Shown: positions 10,610 through 36,865 of the stretch, piece by piece
Numbering within the stretch: position 1 is the first letter of the stretch
Layout of the letters: each line of letters starts with the position of its first letter
Origin: Candidatus Komeilibacteria bacterium
GTDB lineage: Bacteria > Patescibacteriota > Patescibacteriia > UBA1558
Length of the DNA: 64,000 nt
Direction: 5' to 3'
Assembly: GCA_048538275.1 (NCBI GenBank)
Contig: JBLYPW010000001.1
Coordinates: forward strand, 38,244-102,243
Program-made: the position numbers and the translations under genes
Notes under the pieces: generated by a model
What the model was told of the DNA's origin: nothing
Databases searched by the model: none
What the model saw: only the letters and a program-made list of their open reading frames with translations

Positions 10610-12592
10610 TTATTCGGTTTTTTCTTGATAGACTTCCAGTATATCGCCTACCTGTATATGAGGGCGACCTTGATAGGTAATACCACATTGCTGCCCAGCT
10701 ATTACTTCATTGACGATTTCTTTATTGGCTTGTAGTTCATTTAATTTACCAAAGTCTATAGTTTCATCGCCGCGGGTAATCTTGACAGTTGTATTAGCTA
10801 TGACCTTGCCTTTAGTAACTTCGCCGCCCACGATCATGCTGTGTTTGTCTGTTTTAAAGATGGCCAAGACTTTAATTTCTCCCAATTCAACTCGCATGGT
10901 TTCTTGAGCTTTTATTTTGTCTAGTTCTGCCGCCACATCATCTAGCAAGTTATAAATGATATCATATTGATGAATAATTATTTTATTATCTAGCGCTAGT
11001 TGTTCGGCAGATTTTACTGGTTTAGTATGAAAGCTGATAAGCATAGCCTTACTACTGACGGCCTCTAAAATATCGACATCAGTAATATAGCCCAGGCCTT
11101 TTTTTATAATTTTTACTTGTGCCTTCTCGGTATTTAATTTGTTTAGAGCTTCTAAGATGGCCTCTTGTGAACCCACTACATCTGTTTTTAGTATAATGGG
11201 CAGAGTAGGAATAGAATCTTCCTCGCCGTCTTCCTGCCCGCTAACGGTTTGGCTATTATTGCTTTGTGGTTTCTTTTTGTTGGCTTTTTGTTTTTGTTTG
11301 AGTAATTTAGCGTCATTGATCACTTCCAATACATCGCCTACTACCGGAGCATCTTTTAAGCCGAGAATTTTTACTGGCTTGGCCGGCGGTACGCTTTGGA
11401 CGTCTTTACCATATTCATCCTTAATAGCTTTGATTTTACCAATTACAGAGCCCACTACGACATTGTCGCCGACGTGCAAGGTACCGGTTTGTACCAATAC
11501 GGTAGCTACTGGCCCTTCGTTTTTATCTTTATGGGCTTCAATGATAGTGCCGGCCGCCTCTCCAGAGGAGTCGGCTGTAAGTTCTTCCATATCTGCTACC
11601 AATAGTACCATTTCCAGCAATTCCTTGAGGCCGGTTTTGTTTTTGGCAGAAATGGGCGCGCAAATAGTTTTTCCGCCCCAATCTTCTGGTACCAAATTTA
11701 TTTCTGATAATTCTTTTTTAACTCTTTCTATATCAGCAGCGTCTTTATCAATTTTATTGATAGCAATAATAAAGGGTAAATTTTCTTTTTGACAAAGAGT
11801 AATAACTTCAATAGTTTGTGGTTGCAAACCGTCATCCGCAGCTACTACGATAATGGCGACGTCAGCGATTTTACTGCCGCGGGAACGCATGGCTTTGAAG
11901 GCTTCGTGTCCAGGTGTGTCTAGAAAAGTTATTAAACGATTGTCTAGCTCCACTTGATAGGCGCCAATGTGTTGAGTAATGCCGCCAGATTCCTGGTCAA
12001 TGACATTAGCCGTGCGCAAGGCGTCTAATAATCTAGTTTTGCCATGGTCAACATGCCCCATAACAATAACAACCGGCGGTTTAGTTTCTTTACCGTGTCT
12101 TTGTTGTACAATTTCTTTTAATTTAGCTTCTTGTTGGTCTGATTGGGCAGCGGCCAACTCTTCGTCGCTTAGCCTTTCTACCTTTACTCCCAAGTCTTCG
12201 CCTAAAATACTGGCAGTATCAAAATCAATTGCTTGATTTAGAGTGGCCATAATGCCATTTTGCATTAATTCTACCATTAATTTATTGACGGGAATTTCTA
12301 ATCGTTCTGCAAATTCTCTTACCACAATGGTGTCAGGAATATGAATTGTTCTTTCCAATTTTTTATCATCTTTTTCTTTGTCGGCATCCAGCCGAACTTC
12401 TGTGACTTTAGCTGCTTCTTCCGCCATTTTATTTTTACGTTTGTACTCGCTCCAAGCAGCGATAATTTTATCTACTAATTTATCGTTTACTTTAATAGCT
12501 TTTTTACCAATATCAAAACCAAGCTCCGGTAGTTTTTCCAAGAGCTCATTTGTTGGTACTTTCAGACGTCTGGCTAATTCAGTTACATTCAT
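10610..12592 (-). CDS. infB: translation initiation factor IF-2
   Basis: GTPase motifs GHVDHGKT and DTPGHEAF, NKID, and the IF-2 C-terminal domains. Confidence 0.9.
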   Translation of the reverse strand: MNVTELARRLKVPTNELLEKLPELGFDIGKKAIKVNDKLVDKIIAAWSEYKRKNKMAEEAAKVTEVRLDADKEKDDKKLERTIHIPDTIVVREFAERLEIPVNKLMVELMQNGIMATLNQAIDFDTASILGEDLGVKVERLSDEELAAAQSDQQEAKLKEIVQQRHGKETKPPVVIVMGHVDHGKTRLLDALRTANVIDQESGGITQHIGAYQVELDNRLITFLDTPGHEAFKAMRSRGSKIADVAIIVVAADDGLQPQTIEVITLCQKENLPFIIAINKIDKDAADIERVKKELSEINLVPEDWGGKTICAPISAKNKTGLKELLEMVLLVADMEELTADSSGEAAGTIIEAHKDKNEGPVATVLVQTGTLHVGDNVVVGSVIGKIKAIKDEYGKDVQSVPPAKPVKILGLKDAPVVGDVLEVINDAKLLKQKQKANKKKPQSNNSQTVSGQEDGEEDSIPTLPIILKTDVVGSQEAILEALNKLNTEKAQVKIIKKGLGYITDVDILEAVSSKAMLISFHTKPVKSAEQLALDNKIIIHQYDIIYNLLDDVAAELDKIKAQETMRVELGEIKVLAIFKTDKHSMIVGGEVTKGKVIANTTVKITRGDETIDFGKLNELQANKEIVNEVIAGQQCGITYQGRPHIQVGDILEVYQEKTE

Positions 12593-12737: not shown

Positions 12738-13772
12738 ATGAATAAACTATTTAATGCCGCTATTGATGCACAAGCATCAGATTTACATTTAATAGCCGGA
12801 TCGCAGCCTTTTATTAGAATTGATGGGGTTTTGCAGCCACTACCTAATTCATCTCCACTTGCGGCGGCAAAGTTGAAAGAGATGGTTTTTGCTTTGTTAA
12901 CAGTTGAACAAAAGAAGAGGCTGGAAGAAGAGAAAGATTTGGATTTTTCTCACGAAACTTCAAATGGGGATCGCTTGCGTATCAATGTGCATTGGGAAAA
13001 GGGGAATATTGGTCTGGTGGCGCGTGTTATACCTGGCGATGTTCCGACTATGGAAGAACTGGCTATGCCAGCAAAATTGTATGAAGTGGTGCGGGAACAG
13101 CAAGGGCTTATTTTATTGACTGGCCCTACTGGTTCTGGCAAGACCACCTCCATGGCAGCGATGATAGATTTAATTAACCATGAGCGAGCCTCACATATTA
13201 TTACTTTGGAAGACCCGATTGAATATATTCACGAACCAGACAAGAGTATTATTATTCAGCGAGAGTTGGGTGAAGATATGTTGTCTTTTCAAGCCGGCCT
13301 AAAACACGCTTTACGACAAGACCCAAATGTTATTATGGTGGGAGAGATGCGCGATTTGGATACTATAGCAGCTACTCTTACATTGGCGGAGACTGGTCAT
13401 TTGGTGATGGCTACTTTGCACACGCATGACGCTGCGCAGACGGTAGATAGAATAGTGGATGTTTTTCCACCCCATCAGCAAAACCAGATTAGACTGCAAC
13501 TTTCTTTTACTTTGAAAGCGGTTTTATCACAACATTTATTACCAGCTAAAGAAGGTGGTCGTATTGCCGCGCGCGAGCTTATGATTAGTACGCCAGCTAT
13601 TGCTAATATTATTCGGGAAAATAAAATCGCACAATTAAAAAATGCTATTCAGACTTCTTCTGATTATGGTATGTTTACCGTAGAACAGGACGTTAAACGT
13701 TTGATAGAAGACGGCAAATTGGACGAGTCTATCGCTGATAATTATTTAGCGGCCTTGCCTGACACTGATTAG
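12738..13772 (+). CDS. pilT: type IV pilus retraction ATPase PilT/PilU family
   Basis: Walker A LILLTGPTGSGKTTS, GEMRD motif and His box of the PilT-family secretion ATPases. Confidence 0.8.
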   Translation: MNKLFNAAIDAQASDLHLIAGSQPFIRIDGVLQPLPNSSPLAAAKLKEMVFALLTVEQKKRLEEEKDLDFSHETSNGDRLRINVHWEKGNIGLVARVIPGDVPTMEELAMPAKLYEVVREQQGLILLTGPTGSGKTTSMAAMIDLINHERASHIITLEDPIEYIHEPDKSIIIQRELGEDMLSFQAGLKHALRQDPNVIMVGEMRDLDTIAATLTLAETGHLVMATLHTHDAAQTVDRIVDVFPPHQQNQIRLQLSFTLKAVLSQHLLPAKEGGRIAARELMISTPAIANIIRENKIAQLKNAIQTSSDYGMFTVEQDVKRLIEDGKLDESIADNYLAALPDTD

Positions 13773-13899
13773 CTTATGTTTGAAGATCCAGTAAAATTGG
13801 CAACATTTTTAGTGGTAACCACATTATTGTTTTATGCGGTGGTTTTTAGTTTGCGCGGCTTGCCAATTTGATAAAATTATAGTACATTATGTTGGCTTT

Positions 13900-13976
13900 T
13901 TATTATCCTGCTCCCGTAGCTCAACTGGATAGAGTGTCTGGCTTCGGACCAGAAGGTTGTAGGTTCGAATCCTGCC
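13900..13976 (+). tRNA. tRNA-Arg (anticodon TCG)
   Basis: Hand-folded cloverleaf: acceptor GCTCCCG/CGGGAGC, anticodon stem TCTGG/CCAGA with loop CTTCGGA, T-arm GGTTCGAATCC, and an encoded CCA. Confidence 0.85.
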
Positions 13977-14441
13977 GGGAGCACCACCACGTCATAACTT
14001 GCTTCCGCTGTTTCATGCCCCTGAACAAGTCAGGGTCATTCCACTGCTCATCAAGTTATTCCTTGATGCTCATTGCTTAACTCCTCGACAAGCTCGGAGC
14101 CCAAGCAATGCGCATGGCACTCACTTTTCAACTTGCTTCCGCTTACCCACTTTATTTGAGTCTTTAATTTATAAAACAGAATCTATTTTAAGACTCTGTT
14201 TTTTTGAAAGAAAACGTCGCCTAACGTTTCGGCATATCTGATGTCCGCTTTGCGGATATGGATGGAGGCTTTTGTATAAAAGCCGTAACCAGATATGCCG
14301 TGTTATATGATGTACATGTTTTCCTTTTGATTTGCGATAGCAAATCGCTCTTAAAAAAGAATCTGATTTTGTTTTTCCGTTTTGGGCGAAGGGCAGAGGG
14401 GAATTAAAGGGGTGAATGCCCGAGCCCAAAACACCTTACAA

Positions 14442-16046
14442 TTAATTTGAGCTAAATCCTTTTGTATTTGCTGCTTCAAGCGCGCTAAATATAATTTGCA
14501 TGTCTGATTCAAATTGTTCTTGCGTGATATTTCCAGCAACTTCTTTTGCGTATTCTACTTTTTGACTATTTTCTATTTCATCTTTAGATTTTTTATATTC
14601 ATTTGGATAATATTCCTCAAGTGATTCAACTGCTAATTCAAAAATTTGCCCGTTTGTAAATAAATATGGATAGCCAGCTTTAAATTGGTCATATTTTGTT
14701 TGTTGTTCGCTGTTAGGTTTGTCTATTAGAACAACTGCTTTGTCTTTATATATTGGGTTGTCCGATCCAGCTAGTGGAACAAATAATTTATGAACAGCTA
14801 ATAAACTTGGTTCTTGCTCGTCAATATCTCCACCAGCAAATATTATTTTAATTCCTTTATATTTTGTTGAGTAAAAACGCTTAATAACGATGTTAATAAA
14901 CTCAAATTCACTTTTTCCCTCGACTATTATAAAATTTCTAGGTAAGAGTAAGTCAGACGGACTACCACCCAATAGATCAAAGATTACATCAATTTTTTCT
15001 GCATCACTTACTTCTGTTATTTGGGTAATTTTATTTAATTTTTCAACCTTATGAATTTTTTGACAGTCATGATTCTCTACCACTAAAACAGACGAATGCG
15101 TGTTAATGAATACTTGGTCTGTATCGCAAATATCAAGTAAAGCTTTTTTTAAAGCTCTTTGAGCAGAGGGGTGCAGATGTAATTCTGCCTCATCAATTAA
15201 AAAGAGAAATGTGCCACCGCCACTTTGTTCTTTTCTATAATCTGCAAAAGCTTGAATAATAGATAGCATTATCGCCCTTTGCATTCCGTCGCCTTTATCT
15301 TCAGCTTTTGTTTCAATCCCGTCATCCACGGTTGTGTCAAAGCTTTTTAAAAGATCATTGAAATTTGGCGGATTTACTCCAAACTTAACTTTTGTGCCAT
15401 CTGGAAATTGTTTTTGAAGATAAACCTCAACTTTCGTACCCAGTTTATCAAGCTCTTTTCTAACTTCTGACGAATCGCTATCAAATAATTTTGAAAATTG
15501 AGTTTTAAAATCAATGTAATCTTGTGAATTGTCAATAATAGCGGTTAAAACTCCGGATAACATTGTTCCTATGGGATTCTTGTCTTTGTATTTTGAAACA
15601 TCATCAAGGCGTATCTTTGTATTCACATATTCTAATTTCGGTAAAAATTCATTTATTGCAGTATCTAATCCTGACGGATTACCTTTGTCTTCAGCACCAA
15701 CAAGATATTTTCTTTTATGATCTACGCTAGTTTTTAATACAGAAAAGTTAGTATTGCCGCCAAGCATTGTTCTAATTTTAGTTTTATTTGCATCAGTTGT
15801 TAGTTTTTCAATATCAGATTCAATCACATCTTCAAAAAAAATTTCTACGGAAATTTTATTTGATTCTTCTTTATTGAAATGTTCATCTGCTTTGGATGAT
15901 TTCGAAGTATAAAACCAATCTATTGATTCAAAAAAATTTGTTTTACCATGATTGTTCTGACCGACAAAAACTGAAAATTTATTCGGCAAAACTTCAACCT
16001 CTTGAATTGAACGGTAATTTTTTACAATAATTTTTGATATTCTCAT
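14442..16046 (-). CDS. OLD-family ATP-dependent endonuclease (ABC-type ATPase + Toprim)
   Basis: N-terminal AAA_15/ABC ATPase (VFVGQNNHGKTNF Walker A; LFLIDEAELHLHP Walker B/D-loop). C-terminal OLD-type Toprim (IIVEGKSE ... GGDID). Confidence 0.7.
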   Translation of the reverse strand: MRISKIIVKNYRSIQEVEVLPNKFSVFVGQNNHGKTNFFESIDWFYTSKSSKADEHFNKEESNKISVEIFFEDVIESDIEKLTTDANKTKIRTMLGGNTNFSVLKTSVDHKRKYLVGAEDKGNPSGLDTAINEFLPKLEYVNTKIRLDDVSKYKDKNPIGTMLSGVLTAIIDNSQDYIDFKTQFSKLFDSDSSEVRKELDKLGTKVEVYLQKQFPDGTKVKFGVNPPNFNDLLKSFDTTVDDGIETKAEDKGDGMQRAIMLSIIQAFADYRKEQSGGGTFLFLIDEAELHLHPSAQRALKKALLDICDTDQVFINTHSSVLVVENHDCQKIHKVEKLNKITQITEVSDAEKIDVIFDLLGGSPSDLLLPRNFIIVEGKSEFEFINIVIKRFYSTKYKGIKIIFAGGDIDEQEPSLLAVHKLFVPLAGSDNPIYKDKAVVLIDKPNSEQQTKYDQFKAGYPYLFTNGQIFELAVESLEEYYPNEYKKSKDEIENSQKVEYAKEVAGNITQEQFESDMQIIFSALEAANTKGFSSN

Positions 16047-16052
16047 ATTGAA

Positions 16053-16880
16053 TTAATAACCCAAGGCAAGCTGATCAAGCATATCGGGTCCCTTTTCTCG
16101 ACCGACTTCCTGATAAATCTCAAGGACTTGCTCATATGTTCCGGCTCCACCCACCAAATCCCAAAATTCTTTACCAAGTAAAACCTCGTCTTCCAAATCC
16201 ATGTAATTCACAACGAAACTATGCTTATATGTTGCTTTATTTACACCATAGGGGTTATAGGCAGTGGCGTAATATGCTTTTGCTTTTGGATATTGTTTGT
16301 AAGTTATCCCGTGAATTTGTAGCAACCGTCCTGTTGCCTCTAAACATTGTCCTTTATTCGGTTTTGGGCTTTTTATCTCAATAAAAAGTTCCGTGCCGTC
16401 TTTTTTGACAATATATAAATCAGCAATGCTGGTTCTATCTGCACTTTTCCCATCTCCAGCAATTTTAATAATTTCTTCGACAAATTCAGGATAACTTGAT
16501 TTCATTCCACCTGTGCCAATTTTGCTTGTGATTTCTTCAATTCGTTTTATAGCCTTAAGTGAGATTTGACCAGTAACACGATGTCCTCGCTCTGCGTGTT
16601 TGTGATTATCAAGTGCGATAAGACGAGCACACTCTTCAAATGTCGTGCCAAGTTTTGTAGAAAATGACCTTTCAAATTCCGTTATCGTTAGTAGTCCGTC
16701 TGGCAATAAGGATTCGTGGAACGGTTTTAAATCGCCTTTCTTTGATTCTTGGCGCAATGGCCTTAGTTGCTTAGGGTCAAAACCGTTGTCAGTTTTCTCT
16801 TCTACCATTCCTTGAATAAATCCTTCAAGGTAACCTTTAATTAATTGTCTGGTGTTTTTTGTAATCATATTTTTTGCCAA
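16053..16880 (-). CDS. putative type II restriction endonuclease (PD-(D/E)xK fold)
   Basis: ADLYIV...ELFIEIKSPK fits the PD...(D/E)xK catalytic motif. Its 3' end overlaps the start of the adjacent DNA MTase by 16 bp, implying an operon. Confidence 0.5.
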   Translation of the reverse strand: MAKNMITKNTRQLIKGYLEGFIQGMVEEKTDNGFDPKQLRPLRQESKKGDLKPFHESLLPDGLLTITEFERSFSTKLGTTFEECARLIALDNHKHAERGHRVTGQISLKAIKRIEEITSKIGTGGMKSSYPEFVEEIIKIAGDGKSADRTSIADLYIVKKDGTELFIEIKSPKPNKGQCLEATGRLLQIHGITYKQYPKAKAYYATAYNPYGVNKATYKHSFVVNYMDLEDEVLLGKEFWDLVGGAGTYEQVLEIYQEVGREKGPDMLDQLALGY

Positions 16881-18058
16881 ATTAAAATACTTTCATAAAA
16901 TGCGCCATTGCGCCGTCCTGTACGACGATTAACATGGCGTTCAACCCTCCCGATTGATTTAAACCCAACATCTGAGGGATTATATAAATTATGTTTATCG
17001 TTAACAACGATAGCCATAATTCCGTTTTTAGTCATATAATTGCGTGTGTGCAATAATACATCATTTATACCTTTTATATATTCTTTTTTTGCATCTTCTG
17101 AAGATCCTCTTTTTGCTGGTCCAATTTCTCTGGTTTCGTTATTTTTTAACCCAAGTAATTCATAAGCGTATTTATGCTGATCATGATAATCAATTAAACC
17201 AATGTAAGGTGGTGATGTAAAAACCATATCAATATCTTTCGGCAAGATTACTGTTCGTGAGTCATCATGAAATATTTTGACATCTGCTTTAGTTCTAATT
17301 TTGTTAAATTCTTTTACTCGTTGTAGAGCATCAATAGAATAGCGACTTAAAAATTTATAAGCTTCTTGAACAGGCGTACAAACTCTTCTATGTTTAAAGC
17401 ATTTATATGGTGTTTTCTGTGGTTTTTTAGGGAAGTCTAAATCATAATGCGTAACTAATCGAGCTGAACGTGCCGAGCGAGAAAGAATGATTTTTAATAA
17501 ATCTTGATATTCATAGTCTTTTATCAAACGCAAGTAGCAAAGAAGTTCTTTTTTTGTCCTATCTGCAAACCAGTCGTTAATATATTCATTTTTTGTAGCG
17601 AAAAGTTTATTAACTTTTTCATCATTTAAAAAATCTTTTTCGTATTTCGACATTCGTTTTAAGATATCACGAATTTCCTTATCTAAAAGTTCAATATCAT
17701 ATTTATCAGTTTTAACCTTAGAAAGCAGGGTGTTAAAAACAGAAATATCTGTGCCGATTGAATCAATTCCTAGTGCATTTGCTTCAACAAGTGTTGTTCC
17801 TGACCCACAAAAAGGATCATAAACTAGTTTGGGATTGAATTTACGCAAAAAAATTTCTGCCATTTGAGGAATAAATTTTCCCATGTATGGATGAAGTCGA
17901 TGAACGTGCTTTGTTCGCGCTATTTCCGGTAAATCATTTTCCCGCCAATTTAAATTAAGTGTTTCTAAATCTGTATCAAAATTAATGCTTGAAAAATTGG
18001 TCAACGGAGTTTGTTGATATTGTTTAGCGATTTTTTGAGCTACTTTATTATCGTACAT
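16865..18058 (-). CDS. DNA amino-methyltransferase (N6-adenine or N4-cytosine), alpha-type motif order
   Basis: Motif I DPFCGSGTT near the N-terminus and motif IV TSPPY about 200 aa later (N6_N4_Mtase family). The SPPY variant hints at m4C but does not prove it. Confidence 0.7.
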   Translation of the reverse strand: MYDNKVAQKIAKQYQQTPLTNFSSINFDTDLETLNLNWRENDLPEIARTKHVHRLHPYMGKFIPQMAEIFLRKFNPKLVYDPFCGSGTTLVEANALGIDSIGTDISVFNTLLSKVKTDKYDIELLDKEIRDILKRMSKYEKDFLNDEKVNKLFATKNEYINDWFADRTKKELLCYLRLIKDYEYQDLLKIILSRSARSARLVTHYDLDFPKKPQKTPYKCFKHRRVCTPVQEAYKFLSRYSIDALQRVKEFNKIRTKADVKIFHDDSRTVILPKDIDMVFTSPPYIGLIDYHDQHKYAYELLGLKNNETREIGPAKRGSSEDAKKEYIKGINDVLLHTRNYMTKNGIMAIVVNDKHNLYNPSDVGFKSIGRVERHVNRRTGRRNGAFYESILIWQKI

Positions 18059-18231
18059 ATTTTATTGCCTGAGTAAATGTATTAGTATTGTACTTCATTT
18101 CCCCTTATAAATAAATCGTTTTCGTAGCGGAGCGGAGAAAACACCTTATTCCCCTCTATAATTAAAGAAAAAGAAATTTGAAAATTTTTTAAAACAATTG
18201 GGCGTTAGCCCAAAAAAGAAAAGGAATATTT

Positions 18232-18333
18232 CATATAACATCAGGGATATACGAAGTTTTTCTGGAGCGGAGCGGAAGAAATTTGGGAAATTTGCGAGCC
18301 GAGCAAATTTCCTCATAAGCCCTGTTATACGAG
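18232..18333. repeat. GC-rich long imperfect palindromic element, copy 1
   Basis: catataacatcagggatatacgaag ... cctcataagccctgttatacgag, with internal ggaaatttgc/gcaaatttcc arms. Related to the copy at 19409-19495. Confidence 0.5.
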
Positions 18334-18397
18334 GGTGAGCGTAACGAAGTGGAGCGAAAGCGCAGCGTCCCCTTGCGTATGACGCAGGAGCCAGCCG

Positions 18398-19333
18398 TTA
18401 TCTTTTACACACAGCAAGAGCATAAGTATCTTTAGAATCAGAATATATTTTCACACTAGAAAAGAACTTCTCAAGTATTTTTTTAAACTCGGGTTTGGTA
18501 TATTTATAGGATATTGCAGTAATTATAACATCTCCTTTTTTAAAATTTAAAGTTCTTCCGAGATGTTTAATCGTTTTGTCTTTTTTCAAAATATACAATT
18601 CTTCAATCCTAGAATTGACAAAACGAACATCATAAGCAATATCATGTTTTGTTAAACCTAATTGTTGTGGTATCTGAACAAGCCAATTATTAATTATGGT
18701 GTCTTTGTATTCTTCTGTCCAATCTTCATGACCATTTGTTAGACCATTACCAATCAGAAGAATATCATCTTTGTTCATGCTTGTTTTTATTCCATGCAAT
18801 ATGTCCTCTCTGTCAAAATTCCCCAAGGTATTGCCCAATAACATCATAAAATGAGTTTCAAAGCCAGTCTCTCTAAAAAGAGGAGTAATATTATTAAGAT
18901 TTTCAAAGTCGGAAATATTCCAACGAAATTCCAAAACTTCTCCGACTTTCATTTTACGAATAGTTTTGGCGGCTTTTGAAACCATGTAAGAACTAATATC
19001 AATAGGGCAATACCTGATTTTCATGTGCTTTGCTAATTCATGAATAAACAGAGAGGCTTTTTGTCCGTCGCCACAACCTAAATCAATGATATTGCATGAA
19101 CTTTTTGGTAAAGCATGAACAAAATCTTTCATATTTTGTTTTATCAAAGACACCTCTTTCTCAATAATGGATTTCTTGTATCCCTCAGTCTTACTTAAAT
19201 CAAGAAAACCCTGGGCTTGTTTAGGAGTCAGATACCACAACTTAGAATCTGCAACATCCCAAACCCGAGTTTTTCCCTCGAGTTTATATCCTCTTTTGAG
19301 AAGTTCTTTGAAAATTAAATCATTGATTTGCAT
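18398..19333 (-). CDS. EgtD-like (Methyltransf_33) SAM-dependent small-molecule methyltransferase
   Basis: IIDLGCGDGQKASLF (motif I), LGNTLGNF, DDILLIGNGL and the C-terminal YALAVCKR parallel EgtD's LVELGSGTSEK / LGSTIGNL / GDSLLLGTDL / LSLAVR. The annotated ORF start at 19417 runs into the repeat element; the in-frame ATG at 19333 (MQINDL...) is more plausible. Confidence 0.5.
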   Translation of the reverse strand: MQINDLIFKELLKRGYKLEGKTRVWDVADSKLWYLTPKQAQGFLDLSKTEGYKKSIIEKEVSLIKQNMKDFVHALPKSSCNIIDLGCGDGQKASLFIHELAKHMKIRYCPIDISSYMVSKAAKTIRKMKVGEVLEFRWNISDFENLNNITPLFRETGFETHFMMLLGNTLGNFDREDILHGIKTSMNKDDILLIGNGLTNGHEDWTEEYKDTIINNWLVQIPQQLGLTKHDIAYDVRFVNSRIEELYILKKDKTIKHLGRTLNFKKGDVIITAISYKYTKPEFKKILEKFFSSVKIYSDSKDTYALAVCKR

Positions 19334-19408
19334 AATAAGTGAAAATATATTCTTTATAATATAAATCTTGCGATTGAATTTATTTAGGCTGGCTCCGAGT
19401 AATATGTC

Positions 19409-19495
19409 GTATAACATCAGGATTATGAGAAGTTCGCGAAGCGAATTTGGGTGGAGAAGTCTGCAAGACTTCGTAACCTCATAATCCTTGTTATA
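19409..19495. repeat. GC-rich long imperfect palindromic element, copy 2
   Basis: cgtataacatcaggattatgagaagttcgcgaagcgaa ... cctcataatccttgttatat; the outer arms are mutually complementary. Homologous to 18232-18333. Confidence 0.5.
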
Positions 19496-19615
19496 TTCCC
19501 CGTAGGGCTGAAATTTAGTGCAACGTCCCGAAGGGAAATTTCAGAGTCGTCGTGTCTATCTAAAAAATTTGAATTGCCGCCGCCTTTTTTGTTTCTTTTT
19601 TTCTAAAAAAGAAAA

Positions 19616-20980
19616 TTAGGGTGCGAGTTTTTTTGTTTTAAAAATTTTATCATAAAAAATAATCATTAATATTCCTAAAGGAGAAGTTATACCAAAGGTA
19701 CTTTCTTTCAAAAAAGGAAATAAAACTAATAGTAGGATTGTTGGTATTAGAATTGAATAAAAACTTGCGTTTGAAGTAGTTTTTTTAGAATAAATTCCTG
19801 CAATAATTGGCGGAACAAAAATTAAAGCAAGATAAGTAACAAGTAATGATAAGGTAATAATATTTGGTATTAAAAATGCAAATAAAAAACCAATTGTTCC
19901 AAATGTTGCTGTTATAAGTCTAGCATACAGCATTTTCTTTTTTGAATCGAGTTTACTTTTATCAAATAATCCTCTGTAAATAATCGCCGAACCACCAACT
20001 AATAAACTATCAATTGAGGACATAATAACAGCCAGAATTGAAGCAAAGCCAATCCCAACAAGAGAAGGAGGTAAAATTTTATCCATTAGTAAAAATATTG
20101 CAAATTCTTGTTTGATTCCTGAAAGTAAAACTGATGAAACCAGTCCTAAAAATAAAACAATAAATCCTAACAGAATTACAAATGGAATAGAAAGATAAAA
20201 AGAGTTTTTGGCAGTTTTTTCATTGTCAGCGGAGAAAATCCTTTGCCAATGAGTTGTATTTCCAAGATATATAAATCCACTTAAAACAATAACGCCTATC
20301 ATCCAACCAATACCCCCAAACCCAAAAGGATTTAGGTGTCCTTGAGGAACATTGGATAATAAATTTGAAATTCCTCCAACTTCTGAATAACCAATAAAAG
20401 CTAATATTAAAAAAACTATTAAGATAATCCAAAATTGGATAAAATCTGTAATTATATCAATTTTTAAACCGCCAATTGTAGTATATAGAATAACAACAAC
20501 AGCTGATAAAATTAAAGCGAGTTCATATTCTAATCCAACTAAAACAGAAGCCAAAGAAGCAATAGCTATTGCTTGAACTCCTATCCAAATAGTGAGTAAG
20601 AATATTTGTAGGATTCCTGTTAAAATTTTATTTCTTCTATCAAATCTCTTAGCGAAAAAATCTACAATTGTGTGAGCATCATATTCATCACCTATAGTTT
20701 TTATTTTTTTAGCCATAATACCCAGAATTATCATTCCTGCAACAAATGAGATAGGCAACGCTAAACCATAGGAAATTCCTGAATTATAAACTTCTGAGAC
20801 TATGGCAACAACTCCCCCAGCTCCAACAATTGTAGCAACAGTGGAAAAAGTCATAAGCCATAAACTTGTTTTTTTGTTATTCAAAAAATAAGCATTTAAC
20901 GATTCTTTTCTTGAGAAATACCATGCAACTCCAAACATTAATGCAAGATAAACAAATAAGATTATTAGTGTTGTATTCAT
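19616..20980 (-). CDS. sodium:solute symporter (SSF) family transporter
   Basis: Multi-TM protein with the SSF N-terminal signature (...NAYFLNNKKTSLWLMTFSTVATIVGAGGVVA...). Composition is extremely AT-rich compared with its neighbours. Confidence 0.65.
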   Translation of the reverse strand: MNTTLIILFVYLALMFGVAWYFSRKESLNAYFLNNKKTSLWLMTFSTVATIVGAGGVVAIVSEVYNSGISYGLALPISFVAGMIILGIMAKKIKTIGDEYDAHTIVDFFAKRFDRRNKILTGILQIFLLTIWIGVQAIAIASLASVLVGLEYELALILSAVVVILYTTIGGLKIDIITDFIQFWIILIVFLILAFIGYSEVGGISNLLSNVPQGHLNPFGFGGIGWMIGVIVLSGFIYLGNTTHWQRIFSADNEKTAKNSFYLSIPFVILLGFIVLFLGLVSSVLLSGIKQEFAIFLLMDKILPPSLVGIGFASILAVIMSSIDSLLVGGSAIIYRGLFDKSKLDSKKKMLYARLITATFGTIGFLFAFLIPNIITLSLLVTYLALIFVPPIIAGIYSKKTTSNASFYSILIPTILLLVLFPFLKESTFGITSPLGILMIIFYDKIFKTKKLAP

Positions 20981-21288
20981 ATTATAAATTTAAAGAATAA
21001 ATGTATTTATTAAATTTTCTAAAAACTCGCACCCTTTTTATTATATCCTTTGCGATAGCAAAGACAAATTGTGCGAAGCACTAAGGCGGCAATTCAAAAT
21101 ATTAATTTTCACGACGATTGAATATAACTGGTTATTATACGAACTAATGATCGGATAATGTACTAAATTGGTATATTATAGTAACTAATCCTTGGTTTTG
21201 GTAGCATTAAATTACACCCAGATTATAACCTGCTGGATGGAATCGCGCAATTTAGCTAGCCAGTCATCAATGTTCCTATAATGATGAG

Positions 21289-22131
21289 TTATTTAGTTTT
21301 CTTAATATAAAAATCACGGGAGAGTTTTTTTGTCAGCCGTTCGGCTTTGTCGGGATTTTTACTAATGGACAATCTGTTTTTTCCTTGGAGTTGAATAATG
21401 TTTTGTAGTTGTTTTTTATTGTCAGCTGTAAGCTGAGTGGTAGTTTGAAAAAAAGTATCTATTGTTTTGCTAATATTTTTATCCAGCCATACTTCAATCA
21501 GATAATCTTGGATTATGTTGCAATAGTAATTGTCTCCTTTTTTTAATACATTGGCGTTAATATTGTACTGTACATTTTTGTCAGCAAATGCATGGCGCAT
21601 GGCTTTGTCTAGAACATAATCTTTGGCAATGGTAATCAGTATCTGGCGGCCTTGTTGGCGAGCGGTTTGTAATAGTTTTTGTTCTGATTCTGATCGGGCA
21701 TAAGTAAACCACTCGTGTGGATTGTAGACAAAAACAGGCGCGCTATTTTTGGTAGCAAGCATTAAGCTGTGCAGAGCATGTGACCAAAAAATATCTAGCA
21801 AACGTAAATTTTTAAAATAATAGGTAATCTTATCGCCCGGTTTTAGATTGAGAAAATTGCCTGGATCATTTTCTGGGGTAGAGTAGTGAAATTTAGCCAG
21901 GTTAAACCACTCAGCTTGCTCTTTTAACCAATGGAGGTTGAGAGAGAACGATTTTCCGTGTTGCACAATTTTTTCTTCTTCCTTAAGCTGGCGCAAAGTT
22001 TTATATAGTCCTTGTTTGGTGGTGTCAGGGCGATTTTTTTGTATTGCTTGAAGTAATTTTTGCCCGGTTAAAGCTTTATTTTGTAATGCCTTTATAACTA
22101 ATTCTTGAATTGATGGATTATGAGTTGTCAT
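21289..22131 (-). CDS. hypothetical protein (280 aa)
   Basis: ORF only; no recognisable motif. Confidence 0.35.
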   Translation of the reverse strand: MTTHNPSIQELVIKALQNKALTGQKLLQAIQKNRPDTTKQGLYKTLRQLKEEEKIVQHGKSFSLNLHWLKEQAEWFNLAKFHYSTPENDPGNFLNLKPGDKITYYFKNLRLLDIFWSHALHSLMLATKNSAPVFVYNPHEWFTYARSESEQKLLQTARQQGRQILITIAKDYVLDKAMRHAFADKNVQYNINANVLKKGDNYYCNIIQDYLIEVWLDKNISKTIDTFFQTTTQLTADNKKQLQNIIQLQGKNRLSISKNPDKAERLTKKLSRDFYIKKTK

Positions 22132-26280: not shown

Positions 26281-26361
26281 TTAATAACGCAATCCGTGCC
26301 ACGCCATGACATGCCATACTGCGTATGCCATGCCCTACCATGCCACACATTACGTTATTAA
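26281..26361 (+). ncRNA. candidate structured 5' leader/ncRNA of the RT operon: 13-bp inverted repeats flanking a CATGCC repeat core
   Basis: ttaataacgcaat (26281-26293) is the reverse complement of attacgttattaa (26349-26361) with one mismatch. Between them lies ccgtgccacgccatgacatgccatactgcgtatgccatgccctaccatgccac, carrying four (C)CATGCC repeats. It ends 54 nt before the RT start. Confidence 0.35.
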
Positions 26362-26414
26362 CCATTTCATTCACAATTGGCCGCTAGGCGCAATTGTCTT
26401 ACGACAATTTATCT

Positions 26415-27617
26415 ATGAAAGACCCGATTTATGAAGAGATAGTTTCCACCACAAATTTAGCTGAGGCTTATTTTGAGATAGGTGAGAAATTTATATTGGA
26501 AGGGAAGTCTGGTTATAGCGGTTTGGATGGTTTGCAGATACAAGAATTTGATACTAATTTAGAAAAGAATTTACAAGAAATTCGTGCAGATTTGATAACA
26601 TTGGCACCGCTCATGCCTTTAAATTGCAGCCAAATTCCTAAAAAAAATGGAAAACTGCGAGATATATATATTTTATCTTTGCATGATAGGATCAAATCTC
26701 AGGCAATAATCAGAGTGCTAGAACCATTATTAGAAAAGGTTTATTCACCTTTTCTTTTTTCGTATAGGTCTACGCACCCTACACATCTAGCGGCTCGTTC
26801 AGCAGTGCGCCGTTATCATCGGTATTTTGGGAAAGATTATATTTTATTGACGGATGTTGAGAAATATTTTGATAATATTGATAAAAAAATTATCATTAAT
26901 AAATTAGAGAAATTTGGCTTGCAGTCAGCTACCTTGAGTTTAATTCAATTGTTTCTGGATCAGAAGATTTTAAGGAATAATAAGTTGCTTTCGTTAGATA
27001 GAGGCTTAATGCAAGGCGTTCCTTTGGCGGTGTCATTAGCTAATTTCTATCTCAATGAAATTGATTGGTTAATTGGCAAAAAAGTGTCTTTTTATAGGCG
27101 AGTTAGTGATGATATTTTAATTATGGATAAAAGCGAGCATAAAGTTCTGGAAATTTATGATTTGTTACAGATTGAGTTAGATAAATTGGGTCTAAATATG
27201 CACCCGACAAAAACCAAATTAATGAAAAATAGCGAATTGTTTGAGTATTTAGGGTATTTATTTCATAATAATAAAGTGGCCATCGCTACTCGGAGCCAAG
27301 AAAAGTTAATTGCCAAGTTGGAAGCAGAACTACATTATTATCCCATTGCGCTAGACAAAAAAATTGAACGATTAAGGCAAAAAATATTTACCGGCGCAGA
27401 TTCTATTTCAGCTTACCTGCAAAATACTATTCGTCATTATAGGTTTGTAGATGATTATGATCAGATAAAGGAAGTTTCAGAGAAAATTTATCATATATTA
27501 ACTAGGTATTTTTTTAAAACTTATACGGCGCGTCATCGTCGGCGGACAAAAAATATTTGTCGTGATTTGGGCATGCCATCATTTTATAAGATGTTCGTAA
27601 AATATCATCATGAATAA
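26415..27617 (+). CDS. stand-alone reverse transcriptase (group-II/retron-like RT motifs, no maturase/endonuclease domains)
   Basis: RT motifs read off the translation: IPKKNGKLRDIYILS (motifs 1/2), SYRSTHPTHLA, LLTDVEKYFDNIDKKII (motif 3), RGLMQGVPLAVSLANFYLNEID (motif 4, QGxxxS..LaN type) and FYRRVSDDILIM (motif 5, catalytic xSDD). The track ORF begins at a TTG; the first ATG is at 26415. Confidence 0.75.
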   Translation: MKDPIYEEIVSTTNLAEAYFEIGEKFILEGKSGYSGLDGLQIQEFDTNLEKNLQEIRADLITLAPLMPLNCSQIPKKNGKLRDIYILSLHDRIKSQAIIRVLEPLLEKVYSPFLFSYRSTHPTHLAARSAVRRYHRYFGKDYILLTDVEKYFDNIDKKIIINKLEKFGLQSATLSLIQLFLDQKILRNNKLLSLDRGLMQGVPLAVSLANFYLNEIDWLIGKKVSFYRRVSDDILIMDKSEHKVLEIYDLLQIELDKLGLNMHPTKTKLMKNSELFEYLGYLFHNNKVAIATRSQEKLIAKLEAELHYYPIALDKKIERLRQKIFTGADSISAYLQNTIRHYRFVDDYDQIKEVSEKIYHILTRYFFKTYTARHRRRTKNICRDLGMPSFYKMFVKYHHE

Positions 27618-29310
27618 TTTACATAACATCGTGAACTTATATACTAAAAGACAAAAGCAAAAACAGGACTTTGGTTATTTTGGTTGGCAAAATTATCACC
27701 GGGAGTATTTGTTGGGTTTTTGGAAGGCGCAAAAGCAACAAATTCTTAGAGTCGGGTGGTTAAGTTTGGCGGCTATTGTTATAGAAGTGACAATTTTTTT
27801 TCTGGCCCGGGTGGTCATTAGAAATTTATCATTGCAATTGAGCATTATAAGCCTATGGTATGTGGCGGCGTTTTTGGTAGTGGCGGTGATAATTTATTTA
27901 TTACTTAGTTATTTCAGTATTTTTTATCAAAAGAGACTTTTGGTTGATTTATTAAATGATTTAAGAAAGTTATGGTTTAAGATTGTTTTACGACGACCAA
28001 TATTGGCGTCGGATAGAGAGGAAAAAGATAATGCGATTGCCAAAGTATCTTATCATTTTTCTTTGCTAAGCATGGGTTTTAATAGTGCCTTAGTGGGAAC
28101 GTGGCAAGCTATTTTAATTGTCATGGTGTTGTTATTATTATCCGCTTTTGTTAGCTGGACAATGTTTATATGGAGTATAATAATTATTATTTTTGCTGTA
28201 ATTTTTGCTATCGTCGCTTATAAAATAGCTTTTATTTATGTGAGTAGAGAGCAGACATTTTATACTCAGATTATCAAACATATGTTGAAAGTTTTTTATG
28301 ACTTGGAAAATCATCAGCTACATAACCGCGAGGCAATGGCTTTGCAGAGGTTGAATAAGTTGGTAGAGCTTGATAGTTGGTTTCGGGTGCGTAGAGATAT
28401 TTGGATGAAATTTGGCGCTGATATATTATTTGTTTTGATATTGTTGGGCGGGGCAATTTTGTATATTGTTCAGCTTTATTGGCCACATATTTTTAGGCAG
28501 GAAGCGGCCAGTTTATTTTTATATGGTGTTATAGCAACGTATAGCGTGCGTTTATTTTATCTGAGTTTGCGGGCTGGTCTTTTTTATGTGCCATTGCGTT
28601 TGGGTTTGTGGTTGTCAATACCAGAAAAAAAGCCGGCAAAAATAAGAATTGTAGAAGAAATAAAAAAAATATGTTTTCGTTCGGATAAGTTTAGGTTATT
28701 TGATGAGGATAAATATTTTTGCAATCAGTTTTGTTTTCAACAAGGTCAAAGCTATTTAATCGTTGATAAAAATAGAGACCGTTTGGATGCCTTGGCACGG
28801 ATTTTTGCTGGCATGGCCTTGTCTAGGGCCAAGCCATGGATTTTGTCGGTTAATGGGCAACGTTATTTATATAAGGATTATTTTAAATATCACACACCAA
28901 ATTATTTGATTTCCGCGAACTGGCGATTTCAGGGCACGGTGGGAGATTTTTTATTACCTCAGGCAGAAGATAGTATTTCGCCTAGTGCAGTGACAAAGAT
29001 ATATGAACAATTGGCGCCATATAATGCGTGGCATTTTTTGTTTAAAAAAAACAAGGTCTTGGCTCAAAAAATAGATTTTGTTGCTTCTTCTATTGAGCAA
29101 AGAGCTTTATTACAAATTGCCTACGCCATCATTCACCAAGTGAATTTTGTTATTATTGATAGTAGTTTGGTTGATTTGCAAGGCAAGCAATTTGTAGCGG
29201 CGATACGATTGTTGCGACAGAAAGTAGCCAAATGTATTATTATAATATTATCAACGGCTGATAACGCCATTTTAGATTATGAAGAAAAGTTCTCACTTAA
29301 AGAAAAATAG
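27610..29310 (+). CDS. ABC exporter-like half-transporter (TMD+NBD) with a catalytically degenerate NBD
   Basis: Six N-terminal TM helices, then an NBD-like region that is colinear with ABC domains. Walker A is replaced (LIVDKNRDRLDAL instead of GxSGSGKST). The signature is degenerate (ASSIEQRALLQIAYAI vs LSGGQRQR). Walker B/catalytic Glu is lost (VIIDSSL vs LLDEATS). The start overlaps the RT stop by 8 nt. Confidence 0.55.
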   Translation: MNNLHNIVNLYTKRQKQKQDFGYFGWQNYHREYLLGFWKAQKQQILRVGWLSLAAIVIEVTIFFLARVVIRNLSLQLSIISLWYVAAFLVVAVIIYLLLSYFSIFYQKRLLVDLLNDLRKLWFKIVLRRPILASDREEKDNAIAKVSYHFSLLSMGFNSALVGTWQAILIVMVLLLLSAFVSWTMFIWSIIIIIFAVIFAIVAYKIAFIYVSREQTFYTQIIKHMLKVFYDLENHQLHNREAMALQRLNKLVELDSWFRVRRDIWMKFGADILFVLILLGGAILYIVQLYWPHIFRQEAASLFLYGVIATYSVRLFYLSLRAGLFYVPLRLGLWLSIPEKKPAKIRIVEEIKKICFRSDKFRLFDEDKYFCNQFCFQQGQSYLIVDKNRDRLDALARIFAGMALSRAKPWILSVNGQRYLYKDYFKYHTPNYLISANWRFQGTVGDFLLPQAEDSISPSAVTKIYEQLAPYNAWHFLFKKNKVLAQKIDFVASSIEQRALLQIAYAIIHQVNFVIIDSSLVDLQGKQFVAAIRLLRQKVAKCIIIILSTADNAILDYEEKFSLKEK

Positions 29311-30775
29311 TTTTTTATTGTCTAGGCAAAAGAAAATTCTGGTAAAGAAATTATTTTTTGTAATTATTATTTTAGCCTGCATTATTTATATTTTACATTT
29401 GGTAGGAAATAGGGCATGGCCTTGGTTAAATGATAAAAATTATAATCCATTGATCACTAAGCGCATTAATGCGCCAATAGATTTCAATATTTTTTTCAAT
29501 GATGTGGTGGGAGACGATGTTTTGTCTAGTAGGATTATAGCTGCTATTGATAGCGCCAGATCATCTATCAAAATAGCTATGTTTGCTCTTACCTCGCCAC
29601 AAATAATCAGCGCCCTGGATAGAGCTGATAAACGCGGCGTGATTATAAAATTAGTCTATGACGAAAGCAATCGCAACCGTTATGCTGTGGCGCTGGGTAA
29701 ATTTTTTGATACTGGCATGGCTAGAGGCGCAGGAGTGGATAATCCTAAGCATAATATTGGTTATTATATGCATCATAAGTTCATTATTATTGATGAAGGG
29801 TTTGATGATGAACAATTGATTACGGGCAGTTTGAATTGGACTGATTGGCAACAACAGTATGATCCTAGTTATTTTATTATTACCAGGCGGCCAGAGATTA
29901 TCAATATTTACAATCAAGAGTTTATGCGTCTTTGGCGTGGGCAATCGGGTGTGGCCAAATTGCGAGATAATGATTATCAGCCATGGATTGGCGAGTTTAA
30001 GTATAATAATGCGACATTGGAATTGTGGTGGGGGCCAGGATTCAAAGAAAATTCTTATCGTCAAAGATTATTGGATCTTATCACTGCCGCCACGCAAAGT
30101 ATTGAAGTAGCAATTTGGCAACTGACCGATCGTGATATCGCGCAAGCACTTTTGGTCCAAGCTACGAAAGGGGTTTCGGTAGCCATCGTGACTGATGATT
30201 ATACTTTATGGTCACGAGATAGTGCATTTCCTTATTTGATTAAGCAAAAGGAGCAATTAGGCTTAGATAATTTAATAATAGCAAGTGATAGTTGGCGCTC
30301 AGTTGATCTTGATAATATTTATAAAATAGTTGGCAGGGATTTCTTTAATTCTTATTTTCATCGTCATGGTGCGCTGATAGACAATAAAATTTTAGCGCTT
30401 GGAACAGCTAATTGGTCATATAGAGGGTTCTGGAGTAATGATGAGTCTGGTTTGGTGACGGATGATTTTGATATGATTCAGGCTTGGCAGCAATCGTGGG
30501 ATTATCACTATCATAGTTTACAGGCACAAGAGCTACATTTTTTTAAAAACGAACAAGTTTTAACTTTGGGTGATAAATTTGATCAATTTTATGGAAAAAA
30601 TTTATTAGCAATTTGTGAGCTGAGCGGTGACTCGGTGAAGCCCTTGATCTTGAGTCAGACCATTTTAGCTGATTTAAATCAAAAAATTATGTTGAAGGGA
30701 GATTGTCCAAATGTGGTGCAGGTGTTTATTTATGATGACAATAATAAATTATTGGGTGCTGGTCGAGCCAATTAA
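29279..30775 (+). CDS. membrane-anchored phospholipase D (HKD) superfamily protein, two HKD-like motifs
   Basis: A single N-terminal TM helix. HKD motif 1 is HHKFIIIDEG...GSLNWT. The second motif, HRHGALIDNKILALGTANWS, is degenerate with K replaced by H. The start overlaps the preceding gene by 32 nt. Confidence 0.6.
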   Translation: MKKSSHLKKNSFLLSRQKKILVKKLFFVIIILACIIYILHLVGNRAWPWLNDKNYNPLITKRINAPIDFNIFFNDVVGDDVLSSRIIAAIDSARSSIKIAMFALTSPQIISALDRADKRGVIIKLVYDESNRNRYAVALGKFFDTGMARGAGVDNPKHNIGYYMHHKFIIIDEGFDDEQLITGSLNWTDWQQQYDPSYFIITRRPEIINIYNQEFMRLWRGQSGVAKLRDNDYQPWIGEFKYNNATLELWWGPGFKENSYRQRLLDLITAATQSIEVAIWQLTDRDIAQALLVQATKGVSVAIVTDDYTLWSRDSAFPYLIKQKEQLGLDNLIIASDSWRSVDLDNIYKIVGRDFFNSYFHRHGALIDNKILALGTANWSYRGFWSNDESGLVTDDFDMIQAWQQSWDYHYHSLQAQELHFFKNEQVLTLGDKFDQFYGKNLLAICELSGDSVKPLILSQTILADLNQKIMLKGDCPNVVQVFIYDDNNKLLGAGRAN

Positions 30776-34411: not shown

Positions 34412-34496
34412 CTTGCTACGGGGCAAGCAAGTTAGAAACTTAGAAATTTTGCCTGCCTGCCGAAGCTTCGGCGTAGGCAGGATCCTTTGTTTTTTT

Positions 34497-34598
34497 AATT
34501 CTTTGATTTCTTTGATGCTTTGATACTTTGCCTGCCCCGTAGGGAGGAACGACCGTACGGGGACCCTTTGATTTCTTTGACGCTTTGATACTTTGAGT
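34497..34598 (+). repeat. two copies of a ~32-bp unit built from CTTTGAT(T) iterons, each followed by a GC-rich hairpin
   Basis: ctttgatttctttgatgctttgatactttg (34497-34526) and ctttgatttctttgacgctttgatactttg (34566-34595). Adjacent hairpins: cctgcctgccgaagc/gcttcggcgtaggcagg and ccccgtaggg...ccgtacgggg. Confidence 0.5.
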
Positions 34599-34845
34599 CG
34601 CTACATTTTTTTGGTATAATTAATTTAGTTTGGTCTATCAGGTGGTCATGGCTTTCTGAAACCTTTCTAACGAACATAAATCGAGAATGTAAGCGGTTAA
34701 GATTTCTTGCAGAGTGATTTGTGTATCGTTTCCAAAAGAAATTAACTTGGTGTGCATTGCTGGAGGATTTTAGATCCCAAATAAAATACAGTCCATAGTC
34801 TTTTTAATAAATTACTTGGACAGTGATATAGATGGCACTGCACAT

Positions 34846-36783: not shown

Positions 36784-36865
36784 TTTTTTTGATTTTTTGT
36801 TTTTTATTTTGGGAGATTTTTTTAACCTCTACTAGTAGTTTAGCACACTTTTTTACAAAAGTCAA

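Follow-up and report, generated by a model that had tools for sequence, protein, structure and literature searches.

A probable integron-like, integrase-less array of three gene cassettes with defence and transport cargo in a genome of Candidatus Komeilibacteria

Most descriptions of integrons concern Proteobacteria, with more recent ones from Archaea, and the additional domain of their integrase, IntI, is regarded as a defining and necessary feature of such enzymes. The CTX phage, an integrative mobile element exploiting Xer (IMEX), is integrated by XerCD in the form of a single-strand hairpin of two inverted dif-like sites, whereas the pdif modules of Acinetobacter plasmids have double-stranded sites in alternating orientation and not hairpins. 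In the IntegronFinder definitions, clusters of attC sites lacking an integron-integrase are named CALINs (PMC9024848), and sedentary chromosomal integrons have been presented as anti-phage biobanks (bioRxiv 10.1101/2024.07.02.601686). Archaeal integrons, mostly CALINs in metagenome-assembled genomes (MAGs) and including those of DPANN archaea, were reported together with cross-domain cassette transfer; their IntIs carry the additional domain, and the bacterial partners belonged to Proteobacteria, Spirochaetota and further phyla but not to Patescibacteria (Ghaly et al., 2022; PMC9668308). Defence genes as cassettes, CALINs and the sharing of cassettes across domains are already known. The present work concerns a stretch of 64,000 nucleotides (hereafter the window) from Candidatus Komeilibacteria, a bacterium of the candidate phyla radiation (CPR), of which positions 14219-21146 probably form an integron-like, integrase-less (CALIN-type) array of three cassettes. 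In the searchable literature, no description was found of integron-like arrays in CPR bacteria, of this site family, or of its association with recombinases devoid of the IntI domain. The genome itself was seen through the 64-kb window, and the comparison loci fetched from other genomes (labelled L002 onwards, L002-L161 being PilT loci) are mostly contigs of MAGs.

All the elements of the array lie on the minus strand. Read in that direction, it begins at its proximal end with an attI-like (dif-like) site, TAGTTCGTATAATAACCA/GTTATAT (21122-21146), the slash marking the putative crossover point as placed from homology breakpoints. This site lies upstream of a gene for a transporter of the sodium:solute symporter family (SSF), closed by attC-like site c. 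Then come a Methyltransf_33 gene closed by site b and, finally, a conserved leader, genes for a DNA methyltransferase (MTase), a restriction endonuclease (REase) and an OLD-family nuclease (together M-R-OLD) and a 3' hairpin, closed by site a. The cassettes extend over about 21127-19415 (SSF, 1.7 kb), 19414-18239 (Methyltransf_33, 1.2 kb) and 18238-14225 (M-R-OLD, 4.0 kb). As in chromosomal integrons and CALINs, unrelated small gene units are lined up on the same strand. The adjacent intI gene of a complete integron is absent from the 64-kb window.

The three sites are imperfect hairpins of 88-98 nt with ATAAC...GTTA ends, all on the gene strand and located 68-134 nt past the last stop codon of each unit, with a start-to-start spacing of 1.2 and 4.0 kb. 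Integrons and CALINs have at least two closely spaced attC sites on one strand, each 3' of a gene unit; the window has three such attC-like sites. Site a (14219-14308) has an R'' box ATATAAC (14308-14302) and an R' box GTTAGGC (14225-14219) and closes the M-R-OLD cassette on its 3' side; site b (18233-18330; R'' GTATAAC, R' GTTATAT) and site c (19409-19496; R'' ATATAAC, R' GTTATAC) occupy the same position in the Methyltransf_33 and SSF cassettes, respectively. With respect to the canonical boxes (RYYYAAC and GTTRRRY), the agreement is 6/7 for R'' and 6-7/7 for R' in the three sites. Each site is built of ATATAAC, an A, an arm of 11-12 nt, a pair of small hairpins within about 50 nt, then the arm complementary to the first, GAT or AAAC, and GTTAT or GTTAGGC. 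Between its R and L stems, there is a conserved asymmetric bulge of 1 nt on the 5' and 3-4 nt on the 3' side. Folded as single-stranded DNA, sites a, b and c reach z-scores of -6.6, -2.2 and -5.3 relative to shuffled sequences. Their imperfect palindromes with ...AAC and GTT... core boxes, their tip varying from unit to unit, their length and the resemblance of sites within a lineage are those of integrons and CALINs. Unlike integron sites, they share the interior motif CCACCCAAAT and the bulge of 1 versus 3-4 nt, and some sites of the relatives measure 136-236 nt. At gathering thresholds, the only Rfam match in the whole window was a tRNA; in 13700-14600, which includes site a only, no match was found at E<=10, the standard IntegronFinder attC model not being part of Rfam.

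Since they stand just 3' of genes, as terminators do, these hairpins could also be repeats of the repetitive extragenic palindrome (REP) or miniature inverted-repeat transposable element (MITE) type, or terminator or mRNA-stabilising elements travelling with acquired genes. The island would then derive from unrelated processes, e.g., homologous recombination in a variable hotspot. This explanation appears improbable. In L155, a fourth homologous site stands behind an unrelated gene for a methylase-specificity fusion, and a covariance model, R1, was built from this site and sites a, b and c. In the window, R1 recovered the three island copies alone, i.e., site a with 94 bits (E 1e-22), site b, the most degenerate, with 57 bits (E 1e-12) and site c with 102 bits (E 7e-25), the next best hit having an E-value of 0.03. 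In 1.9 Mb of Patescibacteria PilT control loci, it recovered the L155 copy alone. The hairpin is therefore not a genome-wide repeat. A refined model of 14 sites, R2 (81 bits for site a, 61 for site b), still gave three sites only in the window and none in 1.3 Mb of Patescibacteria PilT control loci. In the 14-site alignment, 91% of the cells pair and 17 of the 27 pairs show a compensatory change, a pairing which is somewhat inflated by the fitting of the alignment to R2; sliding the alignment by 1-3 columns lowered it to 33-50%. Because of these slid controls and of the independent folds, the hairpin structure is regarded as real. The AAC and GTT triplets never vary (13/13 aligned sites) while the stems covary, which also argues against mere repeats or terminators.

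The same sites were found in relatives. R1 matched intergenic, gene-strand positions in the contexts of three close OLD homologues (L183/L184, L186 and L187/L188), none of which belonged to its training set, and R2 gave nine sites in L187, four in L186 and one in L183, all on the same strand within each array. In L183/L184, a tyrosine recombinase gene diverges from genes for an R.HaeIII-type REase, a 5-methylcytosine (m5C) MTase and OLD (92% identity). In L187/L188, the recombinase is followed on the opposite strand by a long succession of unrelated small genes (glyoxalase, GNAT, pyrophosphatase, NUDIX, antitoxin-like), including a unit with a 249-aa open reading frame (ORF), OLD (81%), an R.Eco47II-type REase and an m5C MTase. 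The L186 unit contains a TdeIII-family REase, HNH and Bro-N genes, an MTase fragment and OLD (88%), in a genome whose IF2 is 44% identical to that of the window. Such cargo of glyoxalase, GNAT, NUDIX, toxin-antitoxin and defence genes is typical of integrons.

As in integrons, a divergent tyrosine recombinase with an adjacent, putative primary site heads related arrays, six in number (L155, L183, L184, L187, L205 and L208). These recombinases are about 280 aa long, with mutual identities of 45-51% for L155, L183 and L187. L205 and L208 were chosen for the similarity of their recombinase to that of L183 and for their long contigs, their neighbours being ignored. Both carry R2 sites on the divergent strand, immediately behind the first one or more cassettes, namely after a caspase-helicase gene in L205 (E 6e-16) and after genes of 160 and 150 aa in L208 (E 1e-9 and 1e-6). 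Two further, weak recombinase relatives only were found in the 1.9-Mb control set. In the six arrays, the start of the recombinase gene is 55-85 nt away from a conserved attI-like site, AAGTTNNNATATANNTA/GTTAKNTGAAAT; in L186 and in the window, this site is found without recombinase. In the window, the slot of the divergent recombinase is filled by a 280-aa ORF without family match (21289-22131, minus strand; GC content 0.356), whose membership of the array is uncertain.

Homology between loci breaks at the sites. L183 and L184 are 99% identical over 4.1 kb from AAGTTSGTATATAASTA/GTTA onwards and differ to the left of it, and their recombinases are only 46% identical; one cassette therefore sits in two different platforms. 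The methyltransferase unit of the window (18377-19423) has 92% DNA identity to a contig, L162, with archaeal neighbours (aEF-1beta, aS21, L10P), assigned to a DPANN archaeon of the Woesearchaeota, an arrangement present in two assemblies. This identity begins at ATCCYGATG/GTTATAC, and the L162 copy retains a CATAACAGCG... half-site at the position of the start of site b. This is in line with the cassette-associated sequence common to Bacteria and Archaea reported for archaeal integrons (Ghaly et al., 2022), with the difference that the archaeal copy keeps partial sites only. Among the methyltransferase homologues at 87-96% identity, hairpins are limited to these partial ones of L162, and none was found in L164, L167 and L177. 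The constant strand of the sites within arrays, their position at the recombinase start in six loci (including both of the independently chosen ones), the breakpoints at GTT and the single copy in the control DNA are difficult to reconcile with repeats or terminators; the homologues without hairpins speak for such elements.

The M-R-OLD cassette has a conserved frame. Its leader (18059-18232, minus strand) consists of GAAATATTCC, a GGGC hairpin, and GGGGAATAAGGTG-GTTTTC-loop-GAAAAC-GATTTATTT. A near-identical leader of about 170 nt, containing GGGGTATAAGGTG, the GTTTTY-loop-RAAAAC hairpin and GATTTATTT, follows the attI-like site in L183 (7900-8056), L184 (766-921), L186 (7020-7199), L155 (4500-4650; with a different hairpin loop) and L205 (9790-9925). 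The cargo behind it varies among these six genomes, window included (M-R-OLD, R-M-OLD, LexA-like gene with methylase, caspase-helicase). This leader may be a promoter or a regulatory element; a sigma-70 promoter scan of the island did not rise above chance. In the window, the leader stands after attC-like site b (18232-18059) and elsewhere after attI, as would fit later cassettes inserted at the primary site. At the other end, a conserved 3' hairpin (TTTTGGGC...CACCCC..CCCCTCTGCCC...AAAA; 14379-14432, minus strand) directly follows the OLD stop codon. In L155 (~775-830), L183 (~11690-11740) and L186 (~11630-11660), this hairpin, whose form common to the four loci is TTTTGGGC-ATTCACCCCT..CCCCTCT-GCCCAAAA, directly follows the stop codon with which the last gene of the first cassette ends, even though these genes are unrelated. 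In L155, the first cassette, beside the recombinase, has a LexA-like S24 peptidase/repressor (3244-4440) upstream of the methylase-specificity fusion, and an HNH endonuclease on the opposite strand. Such a first slot, in which exchangeable defence cargo stands between a conserved leader and a conserved 3' hairpin, is unlike integrons.

Several observations weigh against an integron-like nature of these arrays. Unlike integron integrases, the recombinases of about 280 aa have no IntI-specific additional domain, residues 188-200 of the L183 enzyme (13 aa) standing for residues 185-240 of VchIntIA (56 aa), and the integron integrase model TIGR02249 gave 236 bits for a cut-off of 265. The family is very large (>7,900 matches) and near-ubiquitous in Patescibacteria, and may be the housekeeping Xer. 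In the window, searched in six frames with three array-associated recombinases as queries, neither tyrosine-recombinase similarity nor motifs were found. The correspondence of the asymmetric bulge to the extrahelical bases of canonical attC sites is uncertain, and the terminal site of L183 has no GTT in R'. Close methyltransferase homologues (87-89%) occur in other genomes without hairpins, and no recombination product, either circle or empty site, was observed. Lastly, the Methyltransf_33 unit apparently has its own AT-rich, promoter-like region upstream, which, together with the conserved M-R-OLD leader, implies that the units are not simple promoterless cassettes.

Some of these points would be accommodated by an Xer/dif-based, IMEX-like array, in which the recombinase would be the single housekeeping Xer of the cell, the attI-like site the chromosomal dif, and the cassettes Xer-exploiting insertions with folded inverted dif-like half-sites, as in the CTX phage. 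Besides lacking the IntI domain, the recombinase passes the XerA-type model NF040815 (231 bits, cut-off 220), which NCBI names 'site-specific tyrosine recombinase/integron integrase'. In the attI-like site, the right arm (TTATGTGAAAT) resembles TTATGTTAAAT, the XerD arm of dif in E. coli, at 10 of 11 bases, and the 3' half of each attC-like site plus its following flank has the same layout of 11 + spacer + 11. The XerA-model pass and the dif-like right arm make capture by Xer/dif a serious variant, although a rather unlikely one. Indeed, the best solved match of the recombinase is VchIntIA (2A3V, 1e-50), ahead of XerA (2e-45) and XerD, and the left and right arms of the attI-like site are poorly palindromic. 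There is also no plus-to-minus switch of GC skew at the sites (window, L155, L205, L208), i.e., no evident skew terminus, a weak indication given short flanks and the confounding effect of gene orientation. In common with Xer/dif IMEXs, the arrays have an Xer-like recombinase, dif-like half-sites, a folded inverted pair as donor, and insertions accumulating at one primary site. Their cassettes are devoid of replication and phage functions, unlike IMEXs, and up to nine small non-replicative cassettes beside a recombinase correspond to the integron pattern. The Xer/dif explanation overlaps in mechanism with an integron-like array, which we retain as the probable interpretation.

Regarding the cargo, the OLD nuclease announced by the original prediction (14442-16046, minus strand, 534 aa) was confirmed by PADLOC ('Old', 2e-62), Pfam (AAA_15, 1e-30) and the PDB structures of GajA and Ts-OLD. 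The predicted architecture, an N-terminal AAA_15 ATPase followed by a C-terminal Toprim domain (the PADLOC ATPase-Toprim model PDLC02914 spanning residues 275-525), is that of OLD nucleases such as P2 Old (class 1), GajA, the retron Eco8 effector and PARIS AriA/AriB. The family is tight, with more than 120 clusters of 534-540 aa at 68-92% identity. Unlike in Gabija, retron Eco8 and PARIS, the corresponding partners (the UvrD-like GajB, the reverse transcriptase and its ncRNA, AriB) do not adjoin OLD, whose neighbours are the REase and an attC-like site, and the NCBIfam model of the retron Eco8 effector gave 54 bits for a cut-off of 250. OLD is instead tightly linked to a type II restriction-modification (R-M) pair, from which it is separated by a 6-nt gap in the window and with which it overlaps in L183 and L187. 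As announced, the R-M genes themselves form overlapping ORFs on the minus strand. The REase (16053-16880) belongs to the TdeIII family (Pfam RE_TdeIII 1e-61; PADLOC REase_II 8e-68), and the amino-DNA MTase (16865-18058; Pfam N6_N4_Mtase, PADLOC MTase_II 2e-89) has motif I DPFCGSGTT followed by motif IV TSPPY. The likely start of the REase is the ATG at 16868, which overlaps the stop codon of the MTase in an ATGA. The R-M modules are not homologous between arrays (TdeIII in the window, HaeIII in L183, Eco47II in L187), although OLD, the leader and the 3' hairpin are conserved. As with defence cassettes of integrons, an R-M and nuclease unit is thus carried as one cassette; it differs from them by its size (4.0 kb, three genes), its conserved frame and its swapped R-M module.

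Linkage of OLD to methylation-based systems recurs elsewhere. After PilT, tRNA-Arg and tRNA-Lys in L114, i.e., at the same hotspot, a MTase 77% identical to that of the window, a TdeIII-type REase and a divergent OLD-like gene form a trio without R2-type sites, which speaks for an assembly by other processes than cassette recombination. This L114 module comprises a C-protein, the MTase, the REase (27% identical to that of the window) and an OLD-like protein of 709 aa, and is flanked by inverted repeats of about 350 bp (11727-12075 and 16281-16633; 84-100%, with a perfect 42-nt palindrome). In L190, a distant OLD homologue lies beside R-M genes. In L195-L204 (OLD 68%), the gene stands at the end of a bacteriophage exclusion (BREX) operon (PglX-like, a 776-aa protein, BrxL), followed by a large serine recombinase, an arrangement which recurs on many contigs. 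No attC-like sites were found with these more distant OLD homologues (68-76%; L190, L195). In every context examined, the neighbours of OLD include a methylation-based system (R-M or BREX), and this repeated linkage suggests, as an inference from linkage only, a functional partnership of OLD with methylation-based defence.

The S-adenosylmethionine methyltransferase of the Methyltransf_33 family (18398-19333, minus strand; Pfam 4e-30) starts at 19333 and not at 19417, which gives 311 aa as in all its homologues; site c overlaps the spurious upstream ATG. It had been proposed to be EgtD-like. The family stood, while the EgtD equivalog itself was ruled out (TIGR03438, 94 bits for a cut-off of 291), and no ergothioneine pathway genes were found in the neighbourhoods of the methyltransferase, which is a lone gene in many unrelated contexts in CPR-like bacteria and DPANN archaea. 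The SSF symporter (19616-20980, minus strand, 454 aa) was verified by Pfam (1e-32). A transporter 70% identical to it is found in L029/L113 (12151-13527; Buchananbacteria, PilT 55%), where it adjoins the tRNA-Arg/tRNA-Lys pair downstream of PilT, without attC-like sites.

The block had been noticed for its low GC content near tRNA-Arg(TCG), and calculation per gene and for third codon positions bears out this non-uniformity. The OLD, MTase, Methyltransf_33 and SSF genes have a GC content of 0.29-0.32 and a third-position GC content (GC3) of 0.16-0.27, for 0.40+-0.03 and 0.36+-0.05, respectively, in the remaining genes of the window. The deviation is weaker for the REase (0.385) and the 280-aa ORF, and further low-GC stretches lie at 26-30.7 and 32.4-34.4 kb. 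Moreover, OLD is 88-92% identical to proteins of genomes whose IF2 is only 44% identical, so that the proposed horizontal acquisition is well supported by composition together with cassette identities far above those of core genes. In the nearest species representative, a Candidatus Komeilibacteria MAG (L002; PilT 71%, IF2 68%, RuvB 72%), gene order differs, the interval from IF2-PilT to RuvB being 2.3 kb long, with different content, for 9.7 kb in the window. The genomes compared for an empty site were more distant than the species level, their closest PilT reaching 71% in GTDB and 69% in metagenomes; an identical PilT was seen on a 1.5-kb contig only. The PilT-RuvB interval varies among relatives, as recombination in a variable hotspot would also imply.

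The array ends 232 nt from tRNA-Arg(TCG) (13910-13986, plus strand; ARAGORN, Rfam), a landmark outside it. This proximity could evoke a classical tRNA-targeted island, inserted into the 3' end of tRNA-Arg by an integrase since decayed, with a 14-nt repeat as att scar. The repeat, AACTTGCTTCCGCT, is indeed non-random, with exactly two copies for 0.02 expected by chance. However, both copies (13996-14009 and 14130-14143, 134 nt apart) lie within 150 nt at one end instead of flanking the island, and are not tRNA sequence. The 3' end of the tRNA has no second copy in the window, which deprives the suggested att remnant of support, and the decayed integrase suggested for 13987-14441 found none either, no frame showing integrase similarity. 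The hairpin-bounded internal units would also be left unexplained. The tRNA-targeted island is therefore highly improbable, and the term cassette island applies more literally than it was meant. The order PilT, tRNA-Arg(TCG), tRNA-Lys(CTT) is widespread in Patescibacteria (L002-L161), with insertions of 0.2-2.4 kb that separate or follow the two tRNAs in several loci and an inverted pair in others. The tRNA-Lys of most relatives is missing from the window, as a tRNA-targeted insertion might imply, and nothing in the window resembles the tRNA-Lys of relatives; a decayed or intron-split tRNA-Lys after tRNA-Arg was ruled out on this ground.

The stretch 13987-14441 is GC-richer as announced (0.42, and 0.48 in 13987-14160) and has short ORFs only. 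It is not the remnant of a gene; besides site a and the conserved 3' hairpin, it contains a terminator-like hairpin (AAAACAGAATCT...AGACTCTGTTTT; 14173-14202), with T/A runs on both sides, and a GC-rich structured spacer (13994-14143) with hairpins and both copies of the repeat. One copy of the latter forms the 14-nt arm of a 67-nt imperfect hairpin (13994-14060) with ATAAC...GTTAT ends, matched by neither R1 nor R2; the spacer is possibly a decayed site or an ORF-less cassette. Two small GC-rich hairpins with ACAAG(T/C) loops in the spacer (14019-14037 and 14084-14102) have similar counterparts near the PilT/tRNA hotspot of L114 (11141-11166 and 11967-11992), and may belong to a REP-like repeat family. 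About 5 kb from the island, a low-GC block (26285-30775) may be a defence locus of the retron or defence-associated reverse transcriptase (DRT) type. In it, a reverse transcriptase gene (26415-27617; Pfam RVT_1 3e-28, PADLOC RT and DRT UG26/UG17 models) is closely preceded by a near-perfect hairpin of 73 nt (26285-26357; DNA fold -31.5 kcal/mol, z -9.6) and followed by an overlapping 566-aa ORF without family match and a PLD-like (DrmC-like) nuclease. Further on, two copies of a 136-nt repeat, separated by 584 nt, are 88% identical (34258-34977), and a 121-nt tandem pair is 99% identical (36865-37126), both in ORF-poor, low-GC DNA.

The site family, its covarying structure, the regularity of its strand and position and its clustering were observed directly, as were the neighbouring recombinases and the breakpoints of homology. 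From these observations, we infer that the recombinase at the array head recombines the sites in the form of a folded single strand. A cassette would be a gene unit, containing a promoter or not, closed by an imperfect palindrome. Once single-stranded, this palindrome would fold into an R box (ATAAC/GTTAT), the asymmetric bulge, an L stem of 11-12 bp and a variable tip of two hairpins, and the tyrosine recombinase would join the folded site to the attI-like site or to another attC-like site, at or next to GTT. New cassettes would be inserted at the recombinase-proximal end, in which case M-R-OLD would be the oldest resident and SSF the newest. As the recombinase is absent from the window, any further movement would need the enzyme in trans.

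On a wider scale, and more tentatively, it is possible that CPR bacteria harbour a widespread integron-like capture system, with a short Xer/IntI-like recombinase devoid of the IntI domain and attC-type hairpins made of dif-like half-sites. Such a system could be a living intermediate between Xer/dif and canonical integrons, with defence cassettes in a conserved first slot and exchange with DPANN archaea. If true, functional arrays served by recombinases without the IntI domain would call for a wider definition of integron integrases, and would bear on the origin of integrons from Xer-type recombinases. Through such arrays, the tiny genomes of these episymbionts could then take up and rearrange genes for defence and transport, and exchange genes with co-occurring DPANN archaea across the domain boundary.

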